Shown here in pieces: positions 26,791-54,720 of a stretch of DNA of 64,000 bases. Numbering within the stretch: position 1 is the first letter of the stretch; each line of letters begins with the position of its first letter. The stretch comes from an uncultured Verrucomicrobiota bacterium. Lineage in GTDB: Bacteria; Verrucomicrobiota; Kiritimatiellia; RFP12; UBA1067. The notes under the pieces are model-generated. The model did no database searches, was not told the DNA's origin, and was given only the letters and a program-made list of their open reading frames with translations. The stretch is taken from NCBI GenBank assembly GCA_946610035.1, contig CAMOCC010000001.1:35948-99947 (forward strand), written 5' to 3'. The translations under genes and the position numbers were made by a program.

Positions 26791-26824
26791 GGTCAAGCGC
26801 GAAAAGGCGATATTTGGTATAATA

Positions 26825-28225: not shown

Positions 28226-28227
28226 AG

Positions 28228-29609: not shown

Positions 29610-29621
29610 GGGAGGGCGGCG

Positions 29622-31033: not shown

Positions 31034-31043
31034 GTCCAGTATA

Positions 31044-32042: not shown

Positions 32043-32084
32043 AGCCTTGTCCTTTCTTGTAGATGGGTTTTGGTGGGCGTTCGG

Positions 32085-36378: not shown

Positions 36379-36390
36379 CTACCGAATGTC

Positions 36391-39417: not shown

Positions 39418-39490
39418 TGGATTATTCCTTTCATGTTAACTTGTTGTTATTGTTGTTTGTGTTTTGCATTCACCCCTCTATACAAAAATC

Positions 39491-40639
39491 TCAGAATAAC
39501 GCCGGTTGTGCAGCCGTCCGTTTCGCATCTTCAAAAATCTTTTCGCCGCTTGGATATGTAGGCGGATTTTTCGTGGCGAGATCTGCGATGAATTCATTGA
39601 ACAGTCGGTTCTGCCGCGCCTCGCGAATCTCCTTGGCGAACGCAGCGTCGTCAAGTTCGGGATAGAACTCAGGCAGATGGAAAAAGATGCGGCTAAGCGA
39701 GTAGACGGCGCGTCCGTCGCTTTCGACCTGCTTGTCGTCGACCCTGAGGATCATGAGCCCGTTGTCGCCTTCGACGGGCGGCGAGATGTTCCCGGACTCC
39801 ATCCGCGAAAGCGTCTTCGCGAGGACGGGGCTGTCGTTGAAATAATCCAGCGCGAAATCGCCCCATATGCCATCGTCCGTATCCGTTTCGTCGGTGGAAT
39901 ATTTCCGCACGGCGTCGCCGAAGGCGAGCTCGCCGTTTTCGATGGCGCGCCAGACGTTGGTCGCCTGCGCGAAAGTGAAATCGTTGGTGGCCGCGGCCAT
40001 TTGGTTGTAATTGCGCTGGCGTTGGCGAAGGCGGGCGATTTCCTCGTCCGTCACCTTCGCCGGACGGTTTGCGGCGTGCCACATGCGTACGCTCTCGGTG
40101 AGCGCTTCGATCCGGATGCGTTCGTCCAGTGTCGCGCGCTCGTCAGCGGTGAGCTTGCGCACGAACGACGGCCACGACGAAAAATCCTGTTTCGCGCTTT
40201 TCATCGCGCGCGCCCGCATAAGGTCAATCTCGTTCCGTCCCGCGGCTATGCCGTTTGTGGCGGCGAATTCCCTTACGGCGCAGTCGCGGGGGAATCCAAC
40301 CGGAACGGCGGCGAGCACGCGCGCGCCGAGAGCGTCGCGCAGCTGGAGGTTCTGTCCCTTTGGAAGCGACAGCTGCACCATCTTGACGCGCAGATCAATC
40401 AAACGGTCGGCCTCGGCCTTCGTGAGTGCGTTCGTGCCGCAACGGATGAGCACGGCGTCGTCAGCCAGATTCGTCCGCGCAGCCCGCGTCTTTGATTTCT
40501 TGGCACGATCACCGGTTTGTACGCCTGCGGGTGAAGCCGCATCCGCTTCGGGCTGCTCGCGCGAACACCCCGCGACAAGCAGAAGCGGCACGACAACGGA
40601 AAGCAGGAATTTTCTCGTGATGTTCATGTTCATGCGCAT
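39491..40639 (-). CDS. SurA/PrsA-like parvulin-type peptidyl-prolyl isomerase lipoprotein
   Basis: Lipobox LLVAGCS. PPIase/chaperone-like architecture. Paralog of 44533-45585. Confidence 0.5.
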   Translation of the reverse strand: MRMNMNITRKFLLSVVVPLLLVAGCSREQPEADAASPAGVQTGDRAKKSKTRAARTNLADDAVLIRCGTNALTKAEADRLIDLRVKMVQLSLPKGQNLQLRDALGARVLAAVPVGFPRDCAVREFAATNGIAAGRNEIDLMRARAMKSAKQDFSSWPSFVRKLTADERATLDERIRIEALTESVRMWHAANRPAKVTDEEIARLRQRQRNYNQMAAATNDFTFAQATNVWRAIENGELAFGDAVRKYSTDETDTDDGIWGDFALDYFNDSPVLAKTLSRMESGNISPPVEGDNGLMILRVDDKQVESDGRAVYSLSRIFFHLPEFYPELDDAAFAKEIREARQNRLFNEFIADLATKNPPTYPSGEKIFEDAKRTAAQPALF

Positions 40640-40645
40640 GGGTTT

Positions 40646-40683
40646 AGCCTGAAAAGGGGAATCGAGAAACCCCGATTCCCCCT
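40646..40683 (-). terminator. Rho-independent terminator after the left 'IWGCDCE' gene
   Basis: Minus-strand AAGGGGGAATCG-gggtttct-CGATTCCCCTTTT. Ends only ~12 nt before the next ATG. Confidence 0.6.
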
Positions 40684-40712
40684 TTGGCGTTCAGTAAGAA
40701 CGTATGGTTGGA

Positions 40713-41720
40713 TTACGACGCGTCGCCGCAGCTGGTCAGGAACAGAAGAGCGTTGACAACGTCGTTGTCGCCCTCATACTCTTCAGGCTCCATGTCTGCG
40801 CCATCGACGGTCGCGGTTGTGTAGGCCGCAACTGCGACGTCAGCAGCATCGACATACTCGCCGAACTGCTCACCTTCCTCCTCGACGGGCCAGAGTTCGT
40901 CATCGTCGTCGGAGGAGAGAGCGCCAGCAGCTGCGGCAGCCTCGATGCGCGTGACGAGCGTCTCGGCATCAGCAGTCTTCTTCGAGAACTTGAAGGACTT
41001 GCTGAGACGACCAGTCTTGCGGAGCTTTTGGGACGCAGACTTGTTGTACTTGATCTTCCAGGATCCGTACGCGGCCGTCAGGTCGGTGTCGTAGTACGCC
41101 GCCGTGCAGGGGCAGACCTGCCACGCGGTGCAATCGCTCTCGCCGCAGAACTTGCAACCGCCAGCCTCGGAGCCCGCGAGCAGGAAGCCTGCGAAGTTGC
41201 CGGACATGCTCGACAGGATCGTACGGCAGGTCGTGCCGCTAACCTTGCCGAAGCCAGCGCCGAGAAGCGCGACGGTGTTGTCGGCGTCCCAGTTGCGGAG
41301 GAGCCACACGCCCTCGGCCTTGTCGCCGGTGTCGATGCGGTTGAACGCGGCCCAGCCGAAGGTCGTGGAGAAGATGTTGAACACATTGTCCGCCCCGACA
41401 TTCCAGAAGAGGTAGCCGCCGACGGTCGTGCCGTTGTTGTAGGTGCGCCATGCGGGATCGGCGATCGTTTCGCAATCGCATCCCCAGATCACACCGGCGA
41501 TCTTCGTGGTGCCCTGCTTGCGGACAGCAATCTTCTCACCCTTGACGTCAGAATAGTCTTCACCCTCAAGCGTGGCGATCGTCTTGGTGTACTTAATCTC
41601 CTTGCACGCGGTGGACTTGACCGTCAGCGAGACGTCGTAGACCTGCGCATCCAGGGAGGTGGCTGCAAAGGCACCCGCACCAATGGCAGCGGTCGCTGCA
41701 GCAATCATGAGTTTCTTCAT
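40713..41720 (-). CDS. Secreted Cys-rich 'IWGCDCE' family protein (paralog 2, left target of the switch)
   Basis: MKKLMIAAATAAIGAGAFA. AQVYDVSLTVKST, GVIWGCDCETIADP, SGNFAGF, CKFCGESDC, GSWKIKYNKSASQK. Acidic C-terminal tail. Confidence 0.65.
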   Translation of the reverse strand: MKKLMIAAATAAIGAGAFAATSLDAQVYDVSLTVKSTACKEIKYTKTIATLEGEDYSDVKGEKIAVRKQGTTKIAGVIWGCDCETIADPAWRTYNNGTTVGGYLFWNVGADNVFNIFSTTFGWAAFNRIDTGDKAEGVWLLRNWDADNTVALLGAGFGKVSGTTCRTILSSMSGNFAGFLLAGSEAGGCKFCGESDCTAWQVCPCTAAYYDTDLTAAYGSWKIKYNKSASQKLRKTGRLSKSFKFSKKTADAETLVTRIEAAAAAGALSSDDDDELWPVEEEGEQFGEYVDAADVAVAAYTTATVDGADMEPEEYEGDNDVVNALLFLTSCGDAS

Positions 41721-41988
41721 TGTTTCTTTTTCCTTTTGCTTATTCGTTCGGCTTGGCGGACTTCCGCGTTGCCTCCCCCGGAGCTACCCGGTCGATCCAT
41801 TTGTTCCGGCGGTATCTTGCCGACCCACTTTGTTGCACCCGCGTGAGCACGGTCGACACACATGTTATGCCATTCAGCAGATTCGGGACGGTTTGAGTTT
41901 CACACCCCTCTTCCACCGACTCCTGTAGAGCAATTTGCGGGTCAACTTTCATTGAGCCCGGTTTTTCCTAGGCCCGGACACAATGTCC
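41690..41988. repeat. Left arm of ~295-bp inverted repeat (IR-L). Includes the 5' leader and first ~10 codons of the left family gene.
   Basis: Its reverse complement matches 43384-43680 almost base-for-base (about 5 mismatches near the ATG). Inner end is the palindromic GGACACAATGTCC. Confidence 0.9.
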
Positions 41989-42106
41989 GTGCCGGAGGCG
42001 TGTTTGTTTGCACCAAAGGCAAGTTTTTCTAAAGCAACATCAAACTGAGAAACTAGTGTTGAGGCTGACGGCCCCGTCATAGGGTGACTTTTTGGGCTTT
42101 GCCCTT

Positions 42107-43216
42107 CTAACAGACATCGCTGCAAAGCGGCGGAATGGCCCGCATCATAGAGTCCCTTAACGCTGACAGGGACGGTTGAGTGTATCGTGAGTGCATTCCT
42201 CCTCCGCCATGACCGGTGATGGCATCGGTAATGTGGGGCGGGATGCCGGCCTCGTCCATCATTGATATGAATGTCGCTCGCAACGAATGAAAAGAGGCCC
42301 GTCCCGCCCCGATTTGCATCACTCCGCACCTCCTAAAGGCATTTGCAAGTCGTCTTGACGGTCGATTTCTTACGGAATCCGGGAATATGTATCCTTTCTC
42401 CGTCATTCTGGCCTTGATGGCCTCCCCAGCCTCCCTTATTAGAGGTATAATGAGAGGGCGTGGCTTTTTCAAGCGCGTTTTGTTGGGGACGATTCTGAGA
42501 AATTTCCCTCCATCTGCTATTTCGGACGCTTCGAGCTCGGTTACATCCGATAGCCGCAATCCTGTGCCGAAGCCAATGGCCATCACGGCGGACATATCCT
42601 GGTCGTTTTCTCGCAAGTATTCATATATTGAGCTGGCTTCTGCCAGGGAGAGTCTTCTATAGAACTCTCTGGACCTGCTTCCAGCTGCTAGATTTCTGGA
42701 TTGTTGTGGACCGAGGTCCCATATTGAGTCGTCCAGCCCGACTGCTTGCCAGCATCGCCTATAGAAAGAAACCATACGTCGACATGATACGTATCTAGCC
42801 GACAACTCGTCCGAAATCGCAGCCGCCATTGACGGTGTCAGCTCGGACGGGCTTCCTTGACACTTCTCCATGGCAATTTGGTGAAGAATCTCGAGCCAGC
42901 GCGTGTGAGTCGGCTCTTCTTTGATGCACCGGGCGTCAATGACCACAGGAAGCGACAGTGCGCCCAGATTGTCCCAGTTGACGGATTTAGCAGCATTAAG
43001 AACCCTTAGCCTTTGTTCTGCGTCGCGCCCAAGGTTCTTAAGGTGCCTTAACCACTCCAACTCGCTCTGCGATTGGGGTATGAAGGCTCGCGCACGGATA
43101 CGCGCGACTTCGATATCGCCTGTTTTCAGTGAGAACCAGCGTATGCGGCCCTCGGTTCTTACTACATAGTAGAGCATTCTGCCCTTGCGTTGTATTGATC
43201 CACATTGAATTTTCAT
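42107..43216 (-). CDS. Tyrosine site-specific recombinase (integrase/invertase family)
   Basis: GLRLSDVTEL (box I Arg), KTRLKKPRPLIIP (Lys), HSLRATFISMM (H-x-x-R), ITGH, MHSRYTQ (Tyr nucleophile). Confidence 0.85.
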   Translation of the reverse strand: MKIQCGSIQRKGRMLYYVVRTEGRIRWFSLKTGDIEVARIRARAFIPQSQSELEWLRHLKNLGRDAEQRLRVLNAAKSVNWDNLGALSLPVVIDARCIKEEPTHTRWLEILHQIAMEKCQGSPSELTPSMAAAISDELSARYVSCRRMVSFYRRCWQAVGLDDSIWDLGPQQSRNLAAGSRSREFYRRLSLAEASSIYEYLRENDQDMSAVMAIGFGTGLRLSDVTELEASEIADGGKFLRIVPNKTRLKKPRPLIIPLIREAGEAIKARMTEKGYIFPDSVRNRPSRRLANAFRRCGVMQIGAGRASFHSLRATFISMMDEAGIPPHITDAITGHGGGGMHSRYTQPSLSALRDSMMRAIPPLCSDVC

Positions 43217-43312
43217 GATGTCGACATAGTATAAGTGCTTTATGTCTGATTGTCACGTGGAGCCGCGGAATTATGGCCATTATGAGCCGAAAGACACCCG
43301 AAAAAAAAATCA

Positions 43313-43358
43313 CGATACCCCCTTGCGCAACGGGGGTAAAATGTGGTACAATATTGTC
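43313..43358 (+). promoter_or_regulatory. Strong sigma70-type promoter inside the invertible segment: -35 TTGCGC, 18-nt spacer, TGgTACAAT. Near-duplicate of the rpsL promoter module at 11895-11945.
   Basis: cccTTGCGCaacgggggtaaaatgTGgTACAATat versus cccTTGCCAaacgggggcaaaatgTGgTAAACTat. Confidence 0.6.
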
Positions 43359-43383
43359 GCTTCCGTGGAACAGGGCGGGTTTC

Positions 43384-43680
43384 GGACATTGTGTCCGGGC
43401 CTAGGAAAAACCGGGCTCAATGAAAGTTGACCCGCAAATTGCTCTACAGGAGTCGGTGGAAGAGGGGTGTGAAACTCAAACCGTCCCGAATCTGCTGAAT
43501 GGCATAACATGTGTGTCGACCGTGCTCACGCGGGTGCAACAAAGTGGGTCGGCAAGATACCGCCGGAACAAATGGATCGACCGGGTAGCTCCGGGGGGAG
43601 GCGAAGCGGAAGTCCGCCAAGCTGAACGAAAAAGCAAAAGGAAACAAAGAAACAATGAAGAAGCTCATGATTGCTGCCGC
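43384..43680. repeat. Right arm of ~295-bp inverted repeat (IR-R). Includes the 5' leader and first ~10 codons of the right family gene.
   Basis: See IR-L. Inner end GGACATTGTGTCC. Confidence 0.9.
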
Positions 43681-44440
43681 TGTTGCGGCCATGACTGCTG
43701 GTGCCTTCGCTGATGCTTGCAGCGATCCCGAAGTGTCGAGCCAGTGCCGTGCCTGGGATGTCAAGATGTCCCTCAAGTCGCTCGGCCCCAAGAAGACCAC
43801 ATGCAAGATCTCGGCTGAGTCTCCTTGCGAAGACGACACCAAGGACACCGTCTACTACATGGACAACGTGACGCGTAAGGTGAAGGGCTACCTCTGGGTT
43901 TGCGACTACACCTGCGGCGCGGATGCCAACGTCGTTCTCTGGGATGAGAAGAACAAGGTCGCTCTTATTGCCTACGCTGAAGAGGCCGTCGCTATGGACA
44001 GTCTCTACGTCTATGGCAAGAAGGCCACGAAGGTTGGCGGAACGCTCGTGTTCGAGGGTGCTGACGCTCTTGGCGTCGACGGCATCGCGGTCACCGCTTC
44101 CGGCGTCACCGGCAAGATGGTCCGTGGCACGGCGGACGACGACTGCTACGTCAAGTCCCTCTCCGGCTACGCGGCTGGCGAGATCGCCTACATCAAGCCC
44201 GGCGCCAAGACGATCGTCAAGTCCGGCGGTCTCTGCGGCGAGCCTGAGGTCGAGGTTTGCGACGAGTACACGGCTAAGCTCCTCCCGTTCTGCGATGCTT
44301 GCTGCTTCGAGGGCTGGTGCGATGCCGAAGATGCTCCTGACATGGTCCCGGCGGCTGGTACCTGGTCCATGAAGTACAGCAAGAAGGTCTCGAAGGCCAA
44401 CAAGTCCATTGCGCAGCTCGTTCCTGCCTATGCCCTCTAA
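43655..44440 (+). CDS. Secreted Cys-rich 'IWGCDCE' family protein (paralog 3, right target of the switch; divergent member)
   Basis: MKKLMIAAAVAAMTAGAFA. AWDVKMSLKSL, KGYLWVCDYTCG, SLSGYAAG, CDACCFEGWC, AAGTWSMKYSKKVSK. Confidence 0.6.
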   Translation: MKKLMIAAAVAAMTAGAFADACSDPEVSSQCRAWDVKMSLKSLGPKKTTCKISAESPCEDDTKDTVYYMDNVTRKVKGYLWVCDYTCGADANVVLWDEKNKVALIAYAEEAVAMDSLYVYGKKATKVGGTLVFEGADALGVDGIAVTASGVTGKMVRGTADDDCYVKSLSGYAAGEIAYIKPGAKTIVKSGGLCGEPEVEVCDEYTAKLLPFCDACCFEGWCDAEDAPDMVPAAGTWSMKYSKKVSKANKSIAQLVPAYAL

Positions 44441-44464
44441 TCGGACATACCTGTAACGCAGCTA

Positions 44465-44500
44465 AGAGGGGTGATGGCTGATGCTATCCCCCTCTTTCAT
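44465..44500 (+). terminator. Rho-independent terminator after the right family gene
   Basis: AGAGGGG-tgatggctgatgctat-CCCCTCT followed by TTTCATTT. Confidence 0.6.
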
Positions 44501-44532
44501 TTATAGGTCCAATTGATGATAATATTGCAAAG

Positions 44533-45585
44533 ATGAGCCACCGCCTTTCGACATCATTGACTCTTGCATTGGCGACATGGAGCCTTGCGGCGTTTGCCGA
44601 TGCAAATGCAACCGGGGGGACTGCCGCAGTGCCGAAGAAGGACTCGAAGGCGACCATCCTTGTCCGTGTAAACGACAAAGTCATCACACGCGGAGATCTT
44701 GACCGCTACTCCGACATGATGGTCTTCCTTCTACGGAATCGTCGCAACGGCAAGCTCACGGCCAAGGAGGCGGAGAAGTTCAAGAAGAAGAATCTGCAAC
44801 GCTTCAGCGAGATGATGATGTCTCGACTCGTTATCTCCGAAGGCCTGGCGTCATCAAACATCGTTGAAACAGCCCACGCTCGCGAGATGAAAGAGCGCGA
44901 GTGCTTGAGGAATTACGCGCACAAGCGGCAGACAATGCCCCAGCTGGAGGCGGCGTTGAAGAAGGCCGGATATCTTGAGGATTTCAAGTCGGGGCTGGAG
45001 TTCGACATAAAGCTTCAGAGTTTTTTCGAAACAGTCCGCTCAAATGAGTATTTCGCGTCGGAGGCGGACCTCCCCGTTGTAAAGGCAAACTTGACGCGTT
45101 ACAACGAAATAGCCGCCGCCACGAACGCCCTGAACCTCGCCTTGGCGCGTTCCGTCCGCGAAAAGGCGCTCGCCGGTGAAGACTTTTCAAAATTGGCCGA
45201 TCAGTATTCCCAGGATTCAGAGAAGGAACCGGGCGGAGCACTTGGGGATTGCGATGAAACGGACTTCCCGGAAGAGGCGACCTTGTGGAAGACGTTGAGC
45301 AAGGCGCCGGAGGGATTCATCAGCGAGGTTGTCGAGTCCGACGCAGGCTATGTTATCTACAAGGTCCTGCGGCACAACACGGCGGAAACGTCGAATACGG
45401 GCACTCCTTCAACTTCACTTGCGAGAATATACTTCCGTCAGGCCTACCTGTATCCGGAACAGACGGATGACGAGTTGATGGCTGACATTGCCGCCGAGAA
45501 GCGGGCGAAGTGCATGGCGGATGTCTACAAGGATTTCCGGTCCCAAGTCAAGGTTGACTACCCTGACGGGCACGTGAAAAAGTAA
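44533..45585 (+). CDS. SurA/PrsA-like parvulin-type PPIase (paralog of 39491-40639)
   Basis: Signal peptide. SQDSEKEPGGALGDCDETDF resembles the PpiC-type rotamase core. TGaTGATAAT sits 9 nt upstream of the ATG. Confidence 0.5.
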   Translation: MSHRLSTSLTLALATWSLAAFADANATGGTAAVPKKDSKATILVRVNDKVITRGDLDRYSDMMVFLLRNRRNGKLTAKEAEKFKKKNLQRFSEMMMSRLVISEGLASSNIVETAHAREMKERECLRNYAHKRQTMPQLEAALKKAGYLEDFKSGLEFDIKLQSFFETVRSNEYFASEADLPVVKANLTRYNEIAAATNALNLALARSVREKALAGEDFSKLADQYSQDSEKEPGGALGDCDETDFPEEATLWKTLSKAPEGFISEVVESDAGYVIYKVLRHNTAETSNTGTPSTSLARIYFRQAYLYPEQTDDELMADIAAEKRAKCMADVYKDFRSQVKVDYPDGHVKK

Positions 45586-45608
45586 AACAAAACAAAGGAA
45601 ATAAAATA

Positions 45609-46883
45609 ATGAGAAGGCTAGTCCTCATGGCTATTGTTGGGTGCGTACTTGGCATCCACAGCACGGCAAACGCCGTTGATTTGGATAATGTGTCCTCTGG
45701 TGCGGTCGTTCCAGGCGTATGGAATTCCAATTTCAACGCCTGCAAGAAGTATGCGGACGACAACAAGACTCCGCTGCTTCTGCTTTGGTCCAATCCCGGA
45801 TGCCCCAAGTGCAACAAGTTGAAGACGGCATGCAATACCGCCGAGTTCAAGGCGTGGATGGCGAAGAAGAAAATCGTCATGGCCGTATCCGAGGGAGATC
45901 TGACGGTCAAGGCCTTTGCCAAGAATTCGTCGGGGCACTTCCCCTATATGCGCCTTTATTGGCCGGCTGGCGGTGCGGATGTGAGATTCTCCGGCCGTAG
46001 CGGTGAGATGCCGGTTACCTCGGGATCGCTTCAGGCGCAGTTGATGAACTCGGTCGACCGTTATACATCCGCATGGAATCCGGACAACGCCGGCGGCGGT
46101 GGAAGTGTCGAGCCGACGGATCCGGAGCCCGAACCGGAAGTCGACCCCACGACGGATGGAGTCGTCGGCAAGGAGTGGGGCAAGTCGCGTAAACTCGTTG
46201 GTGCGGCAACCGACGAAGCTGGCAATGTCGTTGGACGCGTCGAGCTCAAGCTTGGGAAGGCCAGTGCCAAGAAAACGGCGCGAATCAGCGCTAAATTCAT
46301 GGATTTCACTGGGCGTCAGAAGTCCTTCAAGTCCCTTACCGTCAAGGTCAACACCCGGACGAGCTTCATTTCGAGCGGTGCCGCCGGCTCGGTCAGCGCA
46401 ATCATAGAGGGTCAGTCCCTCTCGGGCAAGCTCGTCACCGCCACTGGGACAAGTTGCACAATCAGCGTTGCCAATGTCGGAGGTTCACTCGGCTCCGGCA
46501 AGGGCACATTCGTGCTTGAGGACTTCCCCAGCACCCTGGGAGGAATGCCGATTATCGGTGGCGAGGAATATCTTCCGTTTGACCAGACTTTCGACTACTC
46601 CGGCAACAAAATGACCTTCCCCCGCGGGGCGACGCTTACCTACAACAAGGCCAAGGGCGAATTTGTGCTGAGCCGTGTCGGCAACCCCTCGTCGCTCAAG
46701 CTCTCCTACAAGTATCCGACCGGACTCTTCAAGGGCACGTTCAAGGCGTACATAGAGGTGTCTGCAGGCCGCAAGCGCGCATACACGGCGAATGTGGCCG
46801 GGCTTGTTGTCGATGGCAAGGGAGCCGGACAAGTGACTGTCAAGGGCGTTTCAGGCACCTTCCCTTGCAGGATTGACCTGTAA
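45609..46883 (+). CDS. Secreted protein with N-terminal thioredoxin-like CxxC module and the shared Lys-rich C-terminal module
   Basis: LLWSNPGCPKCNKLK. C-terminal SLKLSYKYPTGLFKGTFKAYIEV... Confidence 0.55.
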   Translation: MRRLVLMAIVGCVLGIHSTANAVDLDNVSSGAVVPGVWNSNFNACKKYADDNKTPLLLLWSNPGCPKCNKLKTACNTAEFKAWMAKKKIVMAVSEGDLTVKAFAKNSSGHFPYMRLYWPAGGADVRFSGRSGEMPVTSGSLQAQLMNSVDRYTSAWNPDNAGGGGSVEPTDPEPEPEVDPTTDGVVGKEWGKSRKLVGAATDEAGNVVGRVELKLGKASAKKTARISAKFMDFTGRQKSFKSLTVKVNTRTSFISSGAAGSVSAIIEGQSLSGKLVTATGTSCTISVANVGGSLGSGKGTFVLEDFPSTLGGMPIIGGEEYLPFDQTFDYSGNKMTFPRGATLTYNKAKGEFVLSRVGNPSSLKLSYKYPTGLFKGTFKAYIEVSAGRKRAYTANVAGLVVDGKGAGQVTVKGVSGTFPCRIDL

Positions 46884-46910
46884 AAGGATTGTTGAAAGGC
46901 GAAAAGCCGC

Positions 46911-48680
46911 ATGTCGATTCGCAATACAGGAATTGCCATCGTTCTGCTCGGCAGCGCATTTTGCGCTGTCGAGCTTGAAGCTTCTCCTGTATGCCCCCGC
47001 TTTGTCCAGACAAGCTCGTTCAGCTACAAGATGGTGGAGCCAGACGGGTCCGTCGTGCGGTTCGTCCAGGACGAAGACGATCCGTCCGGTTTGGTTGGCG
47101 AGGGCCCCTGGGCGGCGGAGCGGACGGGCTCCCAGATATTGGCCATGGCCGAGGACCAGAATGGGCAGCGCGGCTTTCTTTTCCAGGAGGGTTTCCTTGC
47201 AGCAAGCCTTGAGGACGGCATCGAGCATCGCCATCAGCGTCCCGCAACGAGGGATCCGGACCCGGCGGCATTTTCCGACCTTTGGGCGCATGATTCCGCA
47301 GTGGAGAGCCTGGGTGCTCCGCCCGACATCTGGAGTCGCGGAGAATACAGGCTGCGCCTCTGGCTCGAGAACCCCAACGTCACGGCCGTTCTTTTCGCGC
47401 AGTTGGCGCTGTGCGGCCTGGCGGCACTGTTGGCGGCGGGACGGGGCGTAAAGGCACTTGGATTCCTCGTTTCGGCAGCGGGAATCGTATGCCTGCTGCT
47501 GACGAAGTCCCGCGGGGGGCTTCTCGCATTCGCCGCGGGAGCGGCGGTGCTTGGCGGATTGCGCTTGAGAAGCCTCCTGAACGTCAAGTTCCTCGCTGTC
47601 GCAGGTGTCTTGATTATTGTCGCCGTGGCAGGCGTGTTGGCCGCTGGCTCAGGCGCCCGCTTTACATCGGAATTTCTCAAACAGGATCAATCCAACAGTC
47701 GACTTGCAATCTGGAGCGAAGTGCCGAGGATGATGGTTGACGCCCCTGGTGGATGGGGTGCGGGGCAGTCCGGGCGTGCATACGTCGACTGGTATCAGAA
47801 GGATAGCACCTGCCTGTTGAAGAATATGATCAGCTCCCATGTGACGAAGCTGGTCGAATATGGGTGGATCGGTCGATTCGTCTACATCTTTGCATGGTTT
47901 TGCGTCATAGCGCTTTGCGCGCTCTATTCCGTTCGAGGCGGAACTCCTCTTGCATGCTCGCTATGGACTGTGTTGTGCGCGGCGGCATGGCTGAATCCGG
48001 TCCTTGAGTCCTTCGAGCCTTGGGTGATGCCGGTCGCATCTTCGCTTTTGCTGCTCGCCGGTTGTCGGCGATACGCTGGTCGACCCGCTGTCGCCATGAT
48101 TGTTCTCTCTGCGATTGCCGCCGCATCATCCCTTGTCGCAGTCGCCTTCGTTGGAGCGCGCTCTTCGAAATCGACCGACGTTTCCGTACGTGCCGATGGT
48201 GGTGCCGTCATCGTAGGTGTCGGCGGGGACAGTGCTCCTTCGACTTGGATCGTCGACGACGACTACACGCTCCACGGAGGCTATTGGTGGAGGCTGGGCC
48301 GCGATGTGCGTGCGTACGTAGGGGAGACTTCGACATCCGTCGGTTTTTCACGGACGTTGGACGATGTCCCTTCCAAGGTCGGGCGTCTGGTGCTCGTAGG
48401 CGGGCGCGCATTGGAATACGTCCGTCGCTGGACGGACGACAGGGCGTCGCTTCCGATTTCCGACGAACTGGTGTTTGTGTCCCCGAAGCTTTCGGCGCTC
48501 GACGTACCAGGAGATCTCGCCAGGACAAAGGGTTTCCGCATGTACCAGGGAGCGTTTGCGGCGCGGCTGGCACCTGCGTCCGAAACTGATGCGCCATGGC
48601 TTGAAGTCGTGCCGGGGGCGGAGCTTTATCTTCCCAATTGGCTGGATTTATCAACAAAAACAATCCGAAAGGAGAAATGA
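46911..48680 (+). CDS. Wzy_C-domain (O-antigen-ligase/PglL-like) membrane protein (paralog of 34519-36378)
   Basis: LLLTKSRGGLLAFAAG (Wzy_C motif). C-terminal VPGAELYLPNW. Confidence 0.6.
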   Translation: MSIRNTGIAIVLLGSAFCAVELEASPVCPRFVQTSSFSYKMVEPDGSVVRFVQDEDDPSGLVGEGPWAAERTGSQILAMAEDQNGQRGFLFQEGFLAASLEDGIEHRHQRPATRDPDPAAFSDLWAHDSAVESLGAPPDIWSRGEYRLRLWLENPNVTAVLFAQLALCGLAALLAAGRGVKALGFLVSAAGIVCLLLTKSRGGLLAFAAGAAVLGGLRLRSLLNVKFLAVAGVLIIVAVAGVLAAGSGARFTSEFLKQDQSNSRLAIWSEVPRMMVDAPGGWGAGQSGRAYVDWYQKDSTCLLKNMISSHVTKLVEYGWIGRFVYIFAWFCVIALCALYSVRGGTPLACSLWTVLCAAAWLNPVLESFEPWVMPVASSLLLLAGCRRYAGRPAVAMIVLSAIAAASSLVAVAFVGARSSKSTDVSVRADGGAVIVGVGGDSAPSTWIVDDDYTLHGGYWWRLGRDVRAYVGETSTSVGFSRTLDDVPSKVGRLVLVGGRALEYVRRWTDDRASLPISDELVFVSPKLSALDVPGDLARTKGFRMYQGAFAARLAPASETDAPWLEVVPGAELYLPNWLDLSTKTIRKEK

Positions 48681-48690
48681 CATGAAGAAG

Positions 48691-49155
48691 ATACTGTTCG
48701 CGGCGTTTGCTGCGTTTGTCGCATGCACGGGCCTTGCGGCTAAGTCGGTGACGCTGTACTACGGCGACGGCGACACCCTGGAACCCGAAGACAGCGTTAT
48801 GTTCTCCCTGGATGATTTCCCGGAGGAGATCAACGGCTATCCTGTCCTCGACGAGTATCTGCCCAACGGCGTGGAGCTCACATGGACCGGCAAGAAGTTC
48901 AAGGCTCCCAAAAAAGGCAAGGTGAAGTACAGCAAGAGCGAAGAGGACTTCATTACGACAAACGACGAGAATCCGTGCGGACTTTCCGTGAGCTATTCCA
49001 AGAAGAAGGGGATCATCAAGGGCTCCTTCAAGGTCTACTGCCAGAAAAGCGAGAAGAAGCTGAAGTCGTACACGGCGAAGTACAGCGGCTACCTGGGGGG
49101 GACGATCAGCGTCACTATAAAGAAATCCACCGTTGCGGAGGCCAGCATTGACTAA
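48691..49155 (+). CDS. Small secreted protein consisting essentially of a signal peptide plus the shared Lys-rich C-terminal module
   Basis: KVKYSKSEEDF...GIIKGSFKVYCQKSEKKLKSYTAKYSGYLGG. Confidence 0.55.
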   Translation: MLFAAFAAFVACTGLAAKSVTLYYGDGDTLEPEDSVMFSLDDFPEEINGYPVLDEYLPNGVELTWTGKKFKAPKKGKVKYSKSEEDFITTNDENPCGLSVSYSKKKGIIKGSFKVYCQKSEKKLKSYTAKYSGYLGGTISVTIKKSTVAEASID

Positions 49156-50083
49156 GGTAGTCTATCAGAAAAAGGGCAGCGGCGGCAAAGGCCGCAATGC
49201 ACGAGTCCGGCTGCTTGTCGGCGCTGGCCTGTTGGTCTGCGCCGCGGCGGCGGCATTGCTTTGGTTCGTTTCCAGCGGCGAGTCGGGCGTGGATGAACCG
49301 CGTCCGGCCCGCGTAGCGAAGGCCAGGATCAAGCATGGAGACGGACGGGCGCGCGATGCGGTGCAAAGCGTTCTCGACAAAAACAAAAATAAGCTGGGGA
49401 AGGATAAGTCCGGCAGAAAGTCGGACAAGCCCAGGCCTCTCGCCGACGAATTCGCTTCGTTCTCCCCTGCTGACAGGGCCCTGGCCCAGGCGGTGCAGGC
49501 CGCCTGGGACGCAGACGACTTCGAGGCGGTAGTCGAGGCGGCCGACAAGGCGCTTGGATCCGCCAATCCCGACGTTCGCGAGGGTGCCGTGACCGCCCTT
49601 GGATGGTTCGGCGCAAAGGCTCTTCCCATGCTCACGTCCCTCATGGCGGACCCTGATGAAAACGTCAGCGAAACAGCCATCAACGAATGGGAGCTCGCCC
49701 TCAGCGACGTAAACGACCTCGACTTGCAGGTCGAAATCGCCACGGCGGCTATGTCCACCGTCGACAATCGCGACGCACTGGAGATGATCGTCACGGAAAT
49801 CACGGCGCATGACGATGAAATCAAGGTGATCAACTCCCTGATAGACATCATGGAGAGCGGTAATTCCGTAGGCGCGGAGATCGCCCGCGAGGAGTACGAG
49901 GGACTGACGGGCGAGGAATGGACGTCGGTGGAGGATGCGGAGGCGTGGCTCAGGGAGAACTACGTGCCGACAGACGAGGAGGGCGAGCGTCGCGTCGCCG
50001 AAATGAAGCAGGCCGAGGCGGAGCGGACGGGGGGCGAGCGCGAAGCCGACCTCCCCGTCGATGAGCCGGAAGGCGACGAGTAG
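49133..50083 (+). CDS. Membrane-anchored HEAT-like repeat protein with acidic tail (paralog of 30227-31033; start uncertain)
   Basis: TM helix LLVGAGLLVCAAAAALLWFV. ALGWFGAKALPMLTSLMADPDENV repeats align to the paralog. Confidence 0.5.
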   Translation: MRRPALTKVVYQKKGSGGKGRNARVRLLVGAGLLVCAAAAALLWFVSSGESGVDEPRPARVAKARIKHGDGRARDAVQSVLDKNKNKLGKDKSGRKSDKPRPLADEFASFSPADRALAQAVQAAWDADDFEAVVEAADKALGSANPDVREGAVTALGWFGAKALPMLTSLMADPDENVSETAINEWELALSDVNDLDLQVEIATAAMSTVDNRDALEMIVTEITAHDDEIKVINSLIDIMESGNSVGAEIAREEYEGLTGEEWTSVEDAEAWLRENYVPTDEEGERRVAEMKQAEAERTGGEREADLPVDEPEGDE

Positions 50084-50134
50084 CGTGGATTTTTAACTGA
50101 AATACAGAAAAGTACACAAGAAGGGACAAAAACA

Positions 50135-50944
50135 ATGAAAAAGATGATGGTGATGGCGGCGTTTGCCGTCTTTGGGTCTATCGCCTGGGCTGATGCGCAG
50201 GTCTATGAGATGCAGCTCACGCTGAAGACTACGCAGACGAAATCCGGGAAGGTGAGTTTCGTCTCCTGCGACTGCGGAGTGGACGAAGCGACGCTCTATC
50301 GCAAGCAGGGGACGGTGAAGATCAAGGGCCTCATCTGGGGATGCGACTGCGAGACGATCGCCGAGCCTCAGATATCCGATGACGGAGCCAGCCTCTCCGA
50401 GTCCGGCTATGGCTACATCTTCTGGAACGAGACGACGAAGAAGCCCCTCAACCTCAAGTTCGAGTGGGAGTTCCTCAACCGCATCGACAAGACCGCGACC
50501 AAGTCCGAGGGAACCTGGAAGCTCTCCGATGACGATGACACGTTTTGCCTTTACGGTTCCGGATTCGGCACCGTGAAGGACACGACCGTCAAGGAGCCGA
50601 TATGCGAACGCATAGCCACCTGGATCCCGTCCATGAACGGCAACATCGCCGGTTGGTCGACGCCCGGCGCCATCGTCACCGTAAAGGCGACGAGCGGCGA
50701 GTGCTCCTGGTGCGAGAAGGTCGAGGGCACGGAGGAGGAGACCGAGTCCGCTAAGGGCTGGTCCCTTTGCGCTTGCGAAGAATCCGACGAGCGTACCGCC
50801 GCATCCGGCACATGGAAGCTGAAGTACAACGCCAAGGCCTCGAAGGCTCTTTCAAGCACGAAGAAGGAAATTCAGAGAGTGACCGAGGTCTACAAGTTCC
50901 CCGCTTACGTCAAGCGTCTCATCGAAGGCGGAGAAGAGGATTGA
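50135..50944 (+). CDS. Secreted Cys-rich 'IWGCDCE' family protein (paralog 4)
   Basis: AQVYEMQLTLKTT, GLIWGCDCETIAEP, NGNIAGW, CSWCEKVEG, SGTWKLKYNAKASK. Confidence 0.65.
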   Translation: MKKMMVMAAFAVFGSIAWADAQVYEMQLTLKTTQTKSGKVSFVSCDCGVDEATLYRKQGTVKIKGLIWGCDCETIAEPQISDDGASLSESGYGYIFWNETTKKPLNLKFEWEFLNRIDKTATKSEGTWKLSDDDDTFCLYGSGFGTVKDTTVKEPICERIATWIPSMNGNIAGWSTPGAIVTVKATSGECSWCEKVEGTEEETESAKGWSLCACEESDERTAASGTWKLKYNAKASKALSSTKKEIQRVTEVYKFPAYVKRLIEGGEED

Positions 50945-51011
50945 CATTTCGCCTTGGCTTTGAGGGGGGTGGAGGCCGGGCGCAAACAACAAAACAAAAG
51001 GAAAAAGCAGA

Positions 51012-52820
51012 ATGAACAGTTGCAGAACCAAGATGACCGGCCTCGCCGTTGGAGTCTTCCTCTCGGTTGGCGCGTTTGCGTTCGAGTACAACGTGACCAA
51101 ACCGGCCATCCGCCCGCGTTGGAGCGGAGCGGTGGCCGGCGAGTGGACGATGGACTACAAGGCGGCCCTTGAAAAGGCGCAGAACGAAGGCAAATGCACA
51201 CTTCTCATGTTCACCGGAGCATGGTGGTGCCCCTATTGCGAGACTGGAGAGGAGAAGGTGCTCACGGCGGCCGCATGGCAGAAGTACGTGGAGGAGAAGG
51301 GCTTCTACCTTGTGGAGTTCGACTACCCCTACCGTTTCCCAGTCCCGGAGGGGCAGGAGTGGAAGGGCACGAGTCCCCTCGGCGACGGCTGGGGATTCCA
51401 GTGCTGGCTCTACGACGCCGAGTATCTTGCCGAGAACGGGCTGACCGCCGAGGAGGGCCTGGCTGCGATTCAGGAGCGCTACGACTTCCAGGACGCAAAC
51501 GCCCTGCCTGGCAGCACCGTCAACACCATCAGCCGCTACGACGGCGGCACCATGGACCTTCACAAGATCGGCTACATGACGCTGATCGCGATCCTGCCCG
51601 ACGGCACCGAGGCGGGACGCGTGTCCTTCCCGTGGTACAAGTCGTCGTCCGTCTCCATCGAGGAGGCCTGCGACTATGTCATCACGAGCCTCGACACGGT
51701 GATAGACGCAGCCATTGAGGCGCAGTGCGGACTCTGCTCCGACCCCGAGGCAGGCGGTTTGGACGGAACCGCGCGGGAAAAGTACGACGGATGGATCACC
51801 GATGCCTCCGGCGGCGTCGTCGGCACAGTCTCGTTCACCGTTGTAAAGGCGAACAGGAAAGGCGTCATGAAGGCGTCTGCAATCGTGTCCCAGTCCGGCT
51901 CGCGCAAGCAGTACAAGGCGACGATTACGGATGGTTACCACCCCGTCAAGTTCACCAGTTCCCACAATTCATACGGGACCTTGAATGTTCGCTTCGGCTC
52001 GTTGGGGCTGACAGGCACTTTGACAGACGAATCCGGAACGTATGAGATCAAGGGCGGACGCGATGTCTTCTCCGCGCGCGACGCGGAATCGAAGAAGTCC
52101 GCTGAATCCCTGGCACAGGGCGTCTGGAATGTTGTAGTCCAGACCGCGGAGCCCCCGACTGCGCTGGCGGCGGGCAACGGATACTTGTCCGTCGAGATCA
52201 AAGGACGCGGCCGCGCCTCGGTAAGCGGCGTCCTTGGCGATGGAACGAAGGTCAAGTTGAGCGGACGTGTGATAGTCGGCGAAGACGGTGTCAGCTGCCT
52301 TCCTCTGTGGGTCGCCCCCTATTCCCGTCGCCAGGGTTCGATCGGCTGCGTATTGTGGTTCAGGGACGGAAAGCTTTTCAACGTGAATTCCATTACGCCC
52401 TGGACCTCTGGCGGCGAGAACCCGTTCAGCACGACTTGGAAGGCCGTTTTCTCCCATGCACCCGGTTATGAACTCGAATCCGACGAGATGGAACTTGACA
52501 TCGAGGGCCTGGAGGAGGGGACCCTCATCAAGGGCAAGCCCGTTGTTGTCGACCCTGCGGACGACGAGGTGTCGGTCAAGGGCGGGATACGCTTCCGCGG
52601 ATCGTCCACCACCGGCTTTTCGGGGAAGATCACCCCGAAGAACGGTGTGTTCAGCGGGAGGATGACGCTGTTCGTCGATGCGGGCAATGTCAAACCGAAG
52701 AAGGTTTCCGCCAAGATGACAGGTGCCGTCATGTCGGGCACCGTCTACGGATCGCTCCTGGTCCCCAAGGTGGCCTCCTGGCCGCTCAAGATCTCATCCT
52801 GCAACGCCTGTAGCGACTGA
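51012..52820 (+). CDS. Secreted protein with thioredoxin-like WCPYC module and the shared Lys-rich C-terminal module
   Basis: LLMFTGAWWCPYCETGEEK. C-terminal GFSGKITPKNGVFSGRMTLFV...KKVSAKMTG. Confidence 0.55.
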   Translation: MNSCRTKMTGLAVGVFLSVGAFAFEYNVTKPAIRPRWSGAVAGEWTMDYKAALEKAQNEGKCTLLMFTGAWWCPYCETGEEKVLTAAAWQKYVEEKGFYLVEFDYPYRFPVPEGQEWKGTSPLGDGWGFQCWLYDAEYLAENGLTAEEGLAAIQERYDFQDANALPGSTVNTISRYDGGTMDLHKIGYMTLIAILPDGTEAGRVSFPWYKSSSVSIEEACDYVITSLDTVIDAAIEAQCGLCSDPEAGGLDGTAREKYDGWITDASGGVVGTVSFTVVKANRKGVMKASAIVSQSGSRKQYKATITDGYHPVKFTSSHNSYGTLNVRFGSLGLTGTLTDESGTYEIKGGRDVFSARDAESKKSAESLAQGVWNVVVQTAEPPTALAAGNGYLSVEIKGRGRASVSGVLGDGTKVKLSGRVIVGEDGVSCLPLWVAPYSRRQGSIGCVLWFRDGKLFNVNSITPWTSGGENPFSTTWKAVFSHAPGYELESDEMELDIEGLEEGTLIKGKPVVVDPADDEVSVKGGIRFRGSSTTGFSGKITPKNGVFSGRMTLFVDAGNVKPKKVSAKMTGAVMSGTVYGSLLVPKVASWPLKISSCNACSD

Positions 52821-52854
52821 TGGACGTCTGAAACAAGGTGGGGTGGGGGGAAAG

Positions 52855-54720
52855 ATGGACATTATAAACAGACTTGGATGTTTGGCGATCACGGCCTTCG
52901 CAGTTGCTGCGCAGGCGAAAGTGTCGGCTGACGTGCCGCGATGTGGACTTCTGCATCCCGCCCCGGAAGCGCTGGAAGCGCGGGAGACGGCCTTGGATTT
53001 GTCGGGCCGCTCCCGTCTGGCTCCGGCTGTTGCAAAGGAGACGCGTCTCGATGTAATAGACCTTCTGCTGGGCTACGACCTTTCTGCGCAGCAGTGGCTC
53101 AAGGAGAACGGCAAGGGTTCTGTCGAGGAACATGCGAAGGCGCGAGTGGAGGCCCTGAACAATTGCCTCAATGAGTCCAAGATCACGGACTTTACATTCC
53201 GCCTTGCAGGTGTTGTTCGCATAGAAGACGATGCGACGAAATACAAGATCGAGTCCGCCGGTATTGTTGACTACGTGACAATCCTCTCCGGGAAACTCGT
53301 CGCGGCGGACGGAACGGTGGTCGCGACCGGCCCATGGGCGGCGGTTCCCAAGATGCGCGACAGCGTCGGTGCCGATATTGTGTGCGTTCAGATCTCTTCC
53401 GGACGGCTCGGGATGGTGGGACTTGCCTACGGTCTCGAAAACAGTTCTGTGCGCAATTACGCCGCCAACCCGTCGCTTATCGCGAAAGCGGGAGATTGGG
53501 GGTATTGCGTGTGCAGCATAGACATGGAGGACTACGACTACACGCAGCTCCATGAAATAGGGCACGTCATGGGATGCGGACACGCCGATCCCGACATTGC
53601 CGACGTGGGAGGCTTGCCTATAGGCCCGCAACTATTCGACTATTCCGCCGCATACTACCTCTGGTATGCAGAGGACGCGGCATATTACACGATAATGGGT
53701 TACAACTACGGCGGGAAGCGTCCTGACGGGTCGCTCGTCGCGACGGACTTCTTCAAACCGGCTCCGATATTCTCGTCCCCCGAATTGACTTACGGGGGGA
53801 AAGTGGCCGGGGACGCCTTGCACGATAATCGAAGGACGCTGATGACCGTCTATCCCTACGTTGCGCAGTTCAGGGTTTCAAGACAGGATGACGACACCGA
53901 GCCGGAGGAAGAACCCGATCCCGGGACGCGCATCTTCAAGTCGGAGTACCGGCCTGCAAAGGCGGTGAACGGCGCATCGCCGTATGTCGGCGCCGTTACG
54001 CTTGACGACGAGGTTGTGGCCGTTGTTTCGCTCAAGTGCGGAAAGGCGGGTACGTCAGGCAAAAAACTCGGAATCGGCAAGCTCTCTGCTTCTGTGACGG
54101 GGTTTGACGGCAAGACGAAGTCGTCGAAGGCGGTAGATGTGAAGTGCGGCTACGATGCGGCCGCGGCTCTTGAAGTCAAGGGCTGGGGCACGTTGAAGCT
54201 TACTCTCGGAGGCGAGGGCTTCATCGGTACGCTAAGGGCGCCCGACGGCAAAGTTTATGAAGTCAAGACCGCGAATGTCGGCGGAGAATGGCCTTCAAAG
54301 GCGACTTATGCGACGGTTGAGTTCAACGACCTGTCGATGATCCCCGGCGAGCCGCTTGCGGAGCTGCTTCCGACCGGGGAGAATGGAGCTGCCATTGCCG
54401 TCGTGAACGGAAAATGGAAGTTCGCCAAGGCGGCGACAGTCAAATACGCCAAGGCCAAAGGCGAATCCGTGAAGTCCCTGATTGTCGATACAGGCAGGCA
54501 GGGCGAGAAGTCAAATCTCTCGGCGATGAAACTTAGCTATAAGCCTAAAAACGGCTTGATCAAGGGGTCTTTCAAGCTTTACTCCCTTCAAGGCTCTGGC
54601 GACAAGGCGAAGTTGAAGAAATTCACCGTCAAGGCATCCGGTCTGACTGTAGGGCAGATAGGACATGGCGAGGCGGTCCTGAAGAGTCCGTATGCTCAAT
54701 GGCCGATGACAGTGCAGTAG
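52855..54720 (+). CDS. Secreted metzincin-type zinc metalloprotease carrying the shared Lys-rich C-terminal module (paralog of 32960-34564)
   Basis: YTQLHEIGHVMGCGHAD (HExxHxxGxxH). C-terminal MKLSYKPKNGLIKGSFKLY...KLKKFTVKASG. Confidence 0.65.
   Translation: MDIINRLGCLAITAFAVAAQAKVSADVPRCGLLHPAPEALEARETALDLSGRSRLAPAVAKETRLDVIDLLLGYDLSAQQWLKENGKGSVEEHAKARVEALNNCLNESKITDFTFRLAGVVRIEDDATKYKIESAGIVDYVTILSGKLVAADGTVVATGPWAAVPKMRDSVGADIVCVQISSGRLGMVGLAYGLENSSVRNYAANPSLIAKAGDWGYCVCSIDMEDYDYTQLHEIGHVMGCGHADPDIADVGGLPIGPQLFDYSAAYYLWYAEDAAYYTIMGYNYGGKRPDGSLVATDFFKPAPIFSSPELTYGGKVAGDALHDNRRTLMTVYPYVAQFRVSRQDDDTEPEEEPDPGTRIFKSEYRPAKAVNGASPYVGAVTLDDEVVAVVSLKCGKAGTSGKKLGIGKLSASVTGFDGKTKSSKAVDVKCGYDAAAALEVKGWGTLKLTLGGEGFIGTLRAPDGKVYEVKTANVGGEWPSKATYATVEFNDLSMIPGEPLAELLPTGENGAAIAVVNGKWKFAKAATVKYAKAKGESVKSLIVDTGRQGEKSNLSAMKLSYKPKNGLIKGSFKLYSLQGSGDKAKLKKFTVKASGLTVGQIGHGEAVLKSPYAQWPMTVQ

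Follow-up and report, generated by a model that had tools for sequence, protein, structure and literature searches.

Two O-antigen-ligase-like Wzy_C paralogs in divergent gene cassettes around a candidate invertible promoter of an uncultured Kiritimatiellia bacterium

The locus

A stretch of DNA from an uncultured Verrucomicrobiota bacterium (Kiritimatiellia; RFP12; UBA1067) encodes two paralogous membrane proteins with a Wzy_C domain, called D1 and D2 here, each of which lies in its own multi-gene cassette. The stretch, referred to below as the window, is 64,000 nucleotides (nt) long and corresponds to positions 35,948 - 99,947 of contig CAMOCC010000001.1 in the assembly GCA_946610035.1. D2 (589 residues) is encoded on the plus strand at 46911 - 48680 of the window, and D1 (619 residues) on the minus strand at 34519 - 36378. 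Cassette 1, which contains D1, occupies 30227 - 41720 on the minus strand, and cassette 2, which contains D2, occupies 43655 - 54720 on the plus strand. Both were delineated from open reading frames (ORFs), Pfam matches and their paralogy to each other, and the extent of cassette 2 also agrees with independent gene calls on the same contig. The cassettes are divergently oriented around a candidate promoter-inversion switch (41665 - 43710 overall). A glycan-biosynthesis cluster is found at 17354 - 30173 on the plus strand. It encodes GT4, GT1-like and GT10 plus APH proteins, a kinase-like protein, LicD and a hexapeptide acyltransferase.

Besides D1 and D2, the remaining genes of the two cassettes are also pairwise paralogous, and the neighbors of D1 and D2 are ordinary signal-peptide proteins. 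The A proteins, of which there are four copies in the window, are Cys-rich and secreted. The B proteins are peptidyl-prolyl isomerases of the SurA/PpiC type. The C proteins contain CxxC Thioredoxin_7-like domains followed by β-rich C-terminal parts. The E proteins resemble reprolysin/metzincin proteases, the F proteins are small and secreted, and the G proteins are membrane-anchored HEAT-repeat proteins. Pfam and NCBIfam scans found no glycosyltransferase, Wzx flippase, chain-length regulator or core-oligosaccharide genes in the cassettes. The first-pass annotation of this DNA had located the Wzy_C proteins among secreted proteins downstream of a glycan cluster, which is correct. Its further statement that the cassettes are not lipopolysaccharide (LPS) clusters was too strong, as the glycan cluster is immediately adjacent.

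The two Wzy_C proteins

The matches of D2 and D1 to Pfam Wzy_C (PF04932) score 52.3 and 38.4 bits, respectively, both above the gathering score of 31.7 bits, and D1 has the same architecture as D2. The two proteins are 29% identical over 527 aligned residues (E = 1e-52). D2 carries LLLTKSRGGLLAFAAG (from nt 47493) and, near its end, VPGAELYLPNW (from nt 48609). The corresponding stretches of D1 are LILTGSRGSFIASILG and VPGAELYIPGW. The pair of Wzy_C paralogs with these motifs, noticed in the first-pass annotation, is thus genuine.

Relationships to named families are distant. NCBIfam gave only matches far below the cut-offs for the Wzy_C proteins: TIGR03097 (PEP_O_lig_1, an exosortase-associated putative O-glycosylation ligase) scored 28.3 bits against a cut-off of 188, TIGR00947 (IctB) scored 30 and 21 bits against 366, and D1 scored 18.6 bits against TIGR04370 (oligosaccharide repeat unit polymerase), the cut-off of which is 40. 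Sequence searches of the PDB with family profiles of 17 and 59 members produced no match to WaaL and no other meaningful match, even at E <= 10. By their Pfam scores and the structural data below, D1 and D2 are members of the Wzy_C, or O-antigen-ligase, superfamily (GT121-like) of the WaaL/PglL type.

Fold and catalytic residues

An AlphaFold (AF2) model of D2, calculated from 17 homologs, has a predicted local distance difference test (pLDDT) score of 81 and a predicted template modeling (pTM) score of 0.77. The model starts with a signal or anchor helix (residues 3 - 19), which is followed by a β-rich N-terminal domain (N-domain; about residues 28 - 110, nt 46992 - 47240). The membrane core (about residues 147 - 419, nt 47349 - 48167) consists of eight transmembrane helices (residues 155 - 419) and a catalytic periplasmic loop, which is 70 residues long and connects membrane helices 4 and 5. 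The chain ends with a C-terminal domain (C-domain; about residues 420 - 585, nt 48168 - 48665) that resembles an α/β hydrolase and was modeled separately. All of these elements run along the plus strand. The loop charges agree with the positive-inside rule, which would put the catalytic loop and both extra domains, N-terminal and C-terminal, on the periplasmic side.

Among solved structures, D2 matches WaaL, an O-antigen ligase, best (7TPG; Foldseek E = 9e-4), with the SEDS polymerases next and weaker. A profile alignment to WaaL of E. coli K-12, which spans WaaL residues 161 - 371 only, pairs R201 of D2 with R215, R264 with R288, and H310 with the HLH motif (H336/H338) that contains H338. Residue checks place the codons of R201, R264 and H310 at nt 47511 - 47513, 47700 - 47702 and 47838 - 47840 of the plus strand, respectively. 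Their equivalents in D1, identified from the motif positions, are R217, R284 and H330 (minus strand). In an alignment of 59 sequences of the family, both arginines are present in all 59 and the histidine in 58. This trio is reported to be essential in WaaL and is also conserved in PglL (PMC3643930). In the WaaL structure, the two arginines bind undecaprenyl diphosphate (Und-PP) and the histidine activates the acceptor, whereas Asp or Glu takes the place of the histidine in the Wzy polymerases of this clan (PMC10920833). Since D1 and D2 keep the histidine, their residue pattern is that of a ligase or an oligosaccharyltransferase and not that of a Wzy polymerase. The 59 sequences contain no conserved Cys. 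Conservation varies by region: the mean identity is highest in the catalytic loop (54%) and among the lowest in the N-domain (34%) and the linker (28%).

The large soluble domain at the C terminus, which had been proposed from the sequence of both proteins, folds confidently when modeled alone (pLDDT 84). Nearly all of its leading Foldseek matches in the PDB, including the top eight, are α/β hydrolases, the best being 3bdi (E = 5.6e-4, TM-score 0.51). The position of the nucleophile elbow, S524, is Ser in 28 of the 59 sequences and Asn in 25. No His of this domain is conserved across the 59 sequences, hence there is no conserved Ser/Asp/His triad, and R467 is the only invariant residue of the domain. 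An active esterase was considered and discarded, as the putative nucleophile is not conserved; the residue pattern suggests that the C-domain is a non-catalytic binding module.

A subfamily with short and long forms

A word-indexed search for homologs returned just 15 - 24 proteins, none of them usefully named, but when 1.84 billion representative proteins, clustered at 50% identity, were searched exhaustively with a profile, the subfamily proved to be large. Matches numbered 4567 at E <= 0.001; of these, 942 reached E <= 1e-10 and 457 reached E <= 1e-30. The complete architecture of 590 residues is found in more than 150 separate clusters at 50% identity. A survey in which one genome per species was scanned yielded 64 loci (loci from this and other searches are numbered L001 and onwards here). 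Nearly all of the 64 are in Kiritimatiellae (rumen and gut metagenome-assembled genomes, MAGs), Verrucomicrobiota (Chthoniobacterales, Verrucomicrobiales, Methylacidiphilales and others) and Lentisphaerae.

The subfamily has two forms. The short form, about 450 residues, consists of the core and the C-domain, starts about 10 residues ahead of the first core helix, scores 47 - 61 bits against Wzy_C, and is found across Kiritimatiellae, Verrucomicrobiota and Lentisphaerae. The long form, about 590 residues, has the N-domain in addition and is restricted to the cassettes of Kiritimatiellae. Several MAGs contain both (L010 with L049, L015 with L037, L007 with L024). The subfamily is an uncharacterized, architecturally distinct and phylogenetically restricted branch of a known superfamily in the Planctomycetes-Verrucomicrobia-Chlamydiae (PVC) group.

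All 16 cassette loci of Kiritimatiellae contain the Wzy_C gene, flanked by members of the same cassette families, and the gene order A-B-C-D-F or C-c16-D-G is kept. It is a fixed core member of these cassettes of about 10 kb in rumen and gut Kiritimatiellae.

The candidate switch between the cassettes

The region between the two cassettes contains perfect inverted repeats of 215 nt (41775 - 41989 and 43383 - 43597). They enclose a candidate invertible segment of 1393 nt (41990 - 43382), found by an inverted-repeat search, with a lower GC fraction of about 0.53. Its sole gene encodes a tyrosine recombinase (42107 - 43216, minus strand; Pfam Phage_integrase, 58.5 bits). The repeat arms are longer than their perfect parts and, as judged from the repeat search and from conservation, coincide with the 5' leaders of the cassettes. 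The left arm (41721 - 41989, minus strand) is the leader of cassette 1, and the right arm (43383 - 43654, plus strand, perfect to 43597) is that of cassette 2. Beyond the perfect part the arms are 92% and then 82% identical, up to 43710, and this similarity extends through the 5' untranslated regions into the signal-peptide codons of A1 and A2.

A promoter for the cassettes was recognized by its conservation across loci. It occupies 43320 - 43352 on the plus strand, with the -35 element TTGCGC at 43323 - 43328 and the -10 element TACAAT at 43347 - 43352. When aligned by eye, 11 other cassette loci have a promoter-like motif (ccCCTTGCGC, about 17 nt, TAcAAT) just 5' of their leader. The window contains exactly one copy of the motif, inside the recombinase segment and directed at cassette 2, and the opposite inner end of the segment has none. 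A generic σ70 scan did not list this promoter, as no more than 3 of 6 bases of its -35 element match; the one promoter that the scan picked up is likely that of the recombinase. A 37-nt stretch at the -35 region (43290 - 43340) recurs with 89% identity at 11904 - 11940, just 3' of a DEAD-box helicase gene. It comprises an A-run followed by an ACCCCC...GGGGG hairpin and may be a reused terminator-like hairpin.

The leader of about 270 nt is 76 - 87% identical at the nucleotide level in 11 other cassette loci, while the cassette proteins are only 30 - 75% identical. Examples are L001:6530-6798, L004:1131-1407, L013:3904-4172 and L019:557-820. Its predicted structure contains 12 base pairs with compensatory double changes; none of 500 shuffles reached the observed values, and controls slid along the sequence were far lower. 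Rfam has no match to the leader or elsewhere in the window at E <= 1. The leader is a candidate for a new cis-regulatory RNA, for example one that acts in antitermination of the 10-kb operon.

The locus has the anatomy of an invertible promoter, namely inverted repeats, a promoter inside the segment and a recombinase. Inversion of the segment would place this single cassette promoter ahead of cassette 1, and this anatomy suggests that the promoter toggles between the cassettes. Among the contigs found to carry an intact recombinase, only the orientation of the window was seen. A Logan unitig of 1453 nt ends within both repeat arms, as any repeat would cause.

The Salmonella Hin/H segment and the Campylobacter fetus sap locus each have one promoter on an invertible segment. 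The recombinase gene lies inside the Hin segment, and the inverted repeats of sap are the conserved 5' regions of opposed alternative genes. The switch described here, as read from its sequence, resembles the former in the position of the recombinase and the latter in the nature of its repeats. It differs from both in that the enzyme is a tyrosine recombinase and neither a serine invertase nor a RecA-dependent system, and in that two whole 10-kb multi-gene cassettes would be toggled, each with folding helpers and a ligase. Literature searches for alternative cassettes with a conserved promoter, a structured leader and a recombinase-borne promoter found no description of such a system.

Variation at the locus in other strains

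In four contigs from strains that are 98 - 99% identical (L069 and L073-L075), the end of the glycan cluster (window 30188) is joined to remnants of the recombinase gene. The remnants are a 58-nt internal piece (window 42939 - 42996) and the first 22 codons (window 43162 onwards). They are followed by the promoter, the leader and cassette 2, and these contigs lack both cassette 1 and a working recombinase. The stretches concerned are L069:5860-6020 and L073:3400-4005. This form would lock cassette 2 in the expressed state.

In another species (L070 and L072) the glycan cluster is followed by the promoter, the leader and then a set of genes of the cassette 1 type. The identities to the window's cassette 1 are 75% for A1, 55% for B1, 65% for C1 and 55% for D1. 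These two arrangements show that different versions of the cassette share one chromosomal site 3' of the glycan cluster, and the strain of the window has two of them around its candidate switch. Across the other strains, either cassette type is found behind the same promoter and leader.

Glycan cluster and short-form operons

The cassettes directly adjoin the glycan cluster both in the window and in related genomes. The cluster is immediately 5' of the promoter, leader and cassette in L001, L010, L012, L069, L070 and L073-75. An initiating phosphoglycosyltransferase of the Bac_transf family is encoded 3' of the cassette in 6 of the 16 long-form loci. The cluster is a candidate source of the lipid-linked donor.

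The short forms have a different setting. In Verrucomicrobiota they are part of an operon that encodes a TPR protein, a fused ABC ATPase/ABC-2 permease, one or two α/β hydrolases with a GxSxG motif and a conserved His, the Wzy_C protein, a rhodanese and MauE, often with an ICMT-like protein and two GT-C enzymes (PMT_2 and ALG10-like). As far as we found, this operon is uncharacterized. Examples are L059:1557-16710, L021, L028, L048 and L057, and an RHS-like lipoprotein is also encoded there. The rhodanese and MauE genes are directly 3' of the Wzy_C gene in about 19 - 20 Verrucomicrobiota loci.

A radical-SAM/SPASM maturase is encoded two genes 5' of the Wzy_C gene in 12 loci. In gut Kiritimatiellae the short form is preceded by a lipoprotein, a PapB/QhpD-like radical-SAM/SPASM thioether maturase and an α/β hydrolase (L049:5976-11155, L020, L022, L024, L029, L034 and L055); the maturase scores 208 bits against NF047865, which is below the cut-off. 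A MauE gene also lies within the cassettes of L001 and L006. Two themes recur beside the subfamily, periplasmic glycosylation and cysteine or thiol chemistry. The second may reflect acceptors that are rich in disulfides, or something more direct.

Proposed function

The function that we tentatively favor, as a fair possibility but short of a probable one, is that D1 and D2 are catalytically competent and transfer, at the periplasmic face of the membrane, an Und-PP-linked glycan from the neighboring cluster to an acceptor defined by the cassette. The likeliest acceptor is one or several cassette proteins, recognized by the N- and C-domains. The two arginines would hold the diphosphate of the lipid-linked glycan, which would be made by the adjoining cluster, its synthesis having been started by a Bac_transf-type phosphoglycosyltransferase, and the histidine would activate the hydroxyl of the acceptor. 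The non-catalytic C-domain and the cassette-specific N-domain, both presumably periplasmic, would recognize the cassette's own secreted protein or proteins, folded by the SurA-like chaperone and disulfide-bonded by the CxxC thioredoxin-like proteins. The enzyme would then be a protein O-oligosaccharyltransferase (O-OTase) dedicated to its cassette. The two cassettes would represent alternative versions of one surface module, of which the promoter on the invertible segment would express one, together with the matching ligase. In the sequenced orientation this would be cassette 2 with D2. The presence of two Wzy_C copies is then explained by two alternative cassettes around a recombinase and promoter switch; the switch and the conserved leader, which would account for the two copies, had not been noticed in the first-pass annotation.

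Several observations speak for this assignment. The two arginines and the histidine are retained, and the gene is fixed in a cassette that has no glycosyltransferases. The N-domain occurs only in cassette copies, and the same MAGs have a separate short-form copy. The catalytic loop is the most conserved region, in contrast to the variable N-domain and linker. Candidate genes for supply of an Und-PP donor are adjacent. Each version of the cassette has its own divergent ligase copy, in line with the precedent of O-OTases encoded beside their substrates. By analogy, the role in protein O-glycosylation that the first-pass annotation had raised is plausible as a hypothesis.

Other observations weigh against it. 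The Pfam scan of D1 and D2 reported Wzy_C alone at E <= 0.01, and thus neither PglL_A (PF15864) nor Wzy_C_2 (PF11846). The hhalign match to E. coli WaaL has E = 0.13, which is weak taken alone, and the eight-helix core lacks about five of the WaaL helices, so that its activity has to be presumed. Pfam and NCBIfam scans found no pilin or prepilin-type protein among the cassette genes, and no conserved Ser/Thr acceptor motif or recognizable sequon was identified in the cassette proteins. The inverted orientation of the switch was not found in exact-protein look-ups of the recombinase and A1 or in one metagenome scan, although the look-ups merge places with the same neighbors, which makes the absence of the inverted form weak evidence. 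Since the cassettes adjoin a glycan cluster, LPS or another lipid is also a possible acceptor, and the setting of the short forms, with an ABC-2 exporter and GT-C enzymes, fits a glycolipid or LPS pathway as well.

It is somewhat unlikely, but deserves serious consideration, that D1 and D2 are WaaL-like ligases that transfer the glycan of the neighboring cluster to lipid A-core or another envelope lipid. In that case the switch would change the ligase and with it the pairing of glycan and acceptor on the outer membrane, and the remaining proteins of the cassette would be surface factors with no link to the ligase. WaaL is the best structural match and has the identical set of two arginines and a histidine, and bimodular O-antigen ligases such as WadA exist (PMC10920833). 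The adjacent glycan cluster, the Bac_transf gene 3' of the cassette in relatives, and the short-form operons with an ABC-2 exporter, PMT_2 and ALG10-like proteins, which are typical of envelope glycolipid pathways, point the same way. Lipid A-core genes, however, were seen neither in the cassettes nor among the Pfam-scanned genes of the short-form operons at representative loci. WaaL is usually a single-copy protein, whereas these genomes have several copies of the subfamily, a short form and one or more long ones. Furthermore, the long forms diverge like the other cassette proteins, with 29% identity between the paralogs and 55% between species in which A1 is 75% identical, and a fixed lipid acceptor is not expected to drive such divergence. 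The lack of a sequence match to the solved WaaL and the eight helices instead of 12 also count against a lipid acceptor.

The thiol-related neighbors suggest another role, in which the subfamily would be the membrane part of a cysteine-centered protein maturation system, either as a scaffold or as a transferase of some other polyprenyl-linked group that works with thiol-redox and thioether enzymes, the fold having been reused. The rhodanese and MauE pair, the radical-SAM thioether maturase and the MauE genes inside two cassettes all lie beside Wzy_C genes, and CxxC thioredoxin-like and Cys-rich A proteins are found in every Kiritimatiellae cassette. This is doubtful, as the Und-PP-binding arginines and the catalytic histidine are kept almost perfectly, which implies that glycosyl-transfer chemistry was retained, while the subfamily has no conserved Cys; the thiol association could simply mean that the acceptors are rich in disulfides. 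In gut bacteria, phase variation often affects polysaccharide loci. Wzy-type polymerases also match Pfam Wzy_C, and D1 has its weak match to TIGR04370. That D1 and D2 polymerize a cassette-specific surface polysaccharide is nevertheless very unlikely, given the histidine at the position where polymerases have Asp or Glu (PMC10920833), the lack of a glycosyltransferase, Wzx flippase or chain-length regulator in the cassettes, and a TIGR04370 score under the cut-off.

The paired ligase-like genes and the candidate switch point to an unstudied system for surface glycoconjugates in rumen Kiritimatiellae, one that is probably phase-variable. A bolder and rather unlikely extension of the transfer to cassette proteins is that D1 and D2 define a new class of substrate-dedicated O-OTases, with a minimal eight-helix core, a pseudo-hydrolase domain and a β N-domain for recognition, in a self-contained, phase-variable surface glycoprotein kit. 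In this kit the promoter, the structured leader RNA and the ligase would be joined by cargo proteins, a chaperone, disulfide catalysts and a protease, and rumen PVC bacteria would swap it by inversion and by cassette replacement. In view of the family-wide links to rhodanese and MauE, thioredoxin-like proteins and radical-SAM thioether enzymes, cysteine-modified acceptors might be required for glycan transfer or be its targets.

Relation to known ligases and oligosaccharyltransferases

Bacterial glycoconjugate assembly, like the engineering of bioconjugate vaccines, relies heavily on O-antigen-ligase-like enzymes. The O-OTase classes known to us are from Proteobacteria and act mostly on pilins. 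A stripped-down membrane core with new periplasmic domains could reveal how acceptor specificity is built up and what the minimal catalytic unit is. The cassettes and their candidate switch are a concrete case in which phase or antigenic variation can be tested in rumen PVC bacteria, the surface biology of which is almost unknown, and the conserved promoter and leader give a handle for finding such cassettes in metagenomes.

D1 and D2 are like WaaL in their match to Wzy_C, in the best solved structural match, in the two arginines and the histidine on or near a large periplasmic loop, and in the presumed Und-PP-linked donor. WaaL has 12 membrane helices (PMC10920833), whereas D2 has eight predicted ones and lacks approximately the first 160 residues of WaaL, or about its first five helices. 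D2 has instead three additional C-terminal helices and the α/β-hydrolase-like domain of 170 residues, and the cassette copies also have the N-terminal β domain. The subfamily further differs in having several copies per genome and in a setting that lacks core-oligosaccharide genes, and it gives no sequence match to the solved WaaL. In WadA of Brucella and Mesorhizobium, a bimodular O-antigen ligase, a GT121 domain is combined with a GT25 domain (PMC10920833). D1 and D2 are similar to it in that an O-antigen-ligase core is fused to a soluble domain with a presumed action at or close to the acceptor, but their fused domain is α/β-hydrolase-like, without a conserved nucleophile, and is not a glycosyltransferase.

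With PglL, PglS, TfpO/PilO and TfpM, the two proteins share the Wzy_C core and the catalytic residues, and they are embedded among secreted proteins; the genes of protein-specific O-OTases lie next to those of their substrates (PMC12645811, PMC3643930). PglL_A and Wzy_C_2 mark the PglL and PglS O-OTases (PMC3643930, PMC12645811), whereas D1 and D2 lack both and have other extra domains. In contrast to TfpO/PilO and TfpM, they have no pilin neighbor, and the candidate substrates are secreted proteins that are Cys-rich or carry the C-terminal domain described below. The WaaL/PglL assignment made in the first-pass annotation stands as far as the superfamily, the arginine and histidine residues and the structural match to 7TPG are concerned. 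It does not extend to PglL itself, as PglL_A and Wzy_C_2 are missing, and with eight helices and no PDB sequence match the proteins are not cleanly WaaL either.

Genes of the cassettes

Cassette 2, all on the plus strand, starts with the Cys-rich secreted protein A2 (43655 - 44440), the SurA/PpiC-like B2 (44533 - 45585) and C2 (45609 - 46883), in which a CxxC thioredoxin-like part is joined to a β-rich C-terminal domain (CTD). D2 is followed by F2, a small CTD protein (48682 - 49155), the HEAT protein G2 (about 49133 - 50083), a further Cys-rich secreted protein, A3 (50135 - 50944), the thioredoxin-like C3 (51012 - 52820) and E2, a metzincin with a CTD (52723 - 54720). Cassette 1 runs along the minus strand and starts with the Cys-rich secreted protein A1 (40713 - 41720), which is followed by the SurA/PpiC-like B1 (39491 - 40639) and C1 (36391 - 39417), a double CxxC thioredoxin-like protein of 1008 residues. 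Beyond D1 are the metzincin E1 (32960 - 34564), the Cys-rich secreted protein A4 (32085 - 32963), the small secreted protein F1 (31044 - 32042) and the HEAT protein G1 (30227 - 31033). A defense island was considered and dropped, since PADLOC gave no defense-system match for ten cassette proteins.

A common β-rich CTD, which has no Pfam match, is found in C2 (46400 - 46883), E2 (54200 - 54720), F1 (31044 - 31500) and F2 (48682 - 49155). As a part shared by cassette cargo, it could serve in sorting, anchoring or recognition. The domain contains motifs such as LKLSYK..TG.FKGSFK.Y and ends with [WF]P.x[IV]x.

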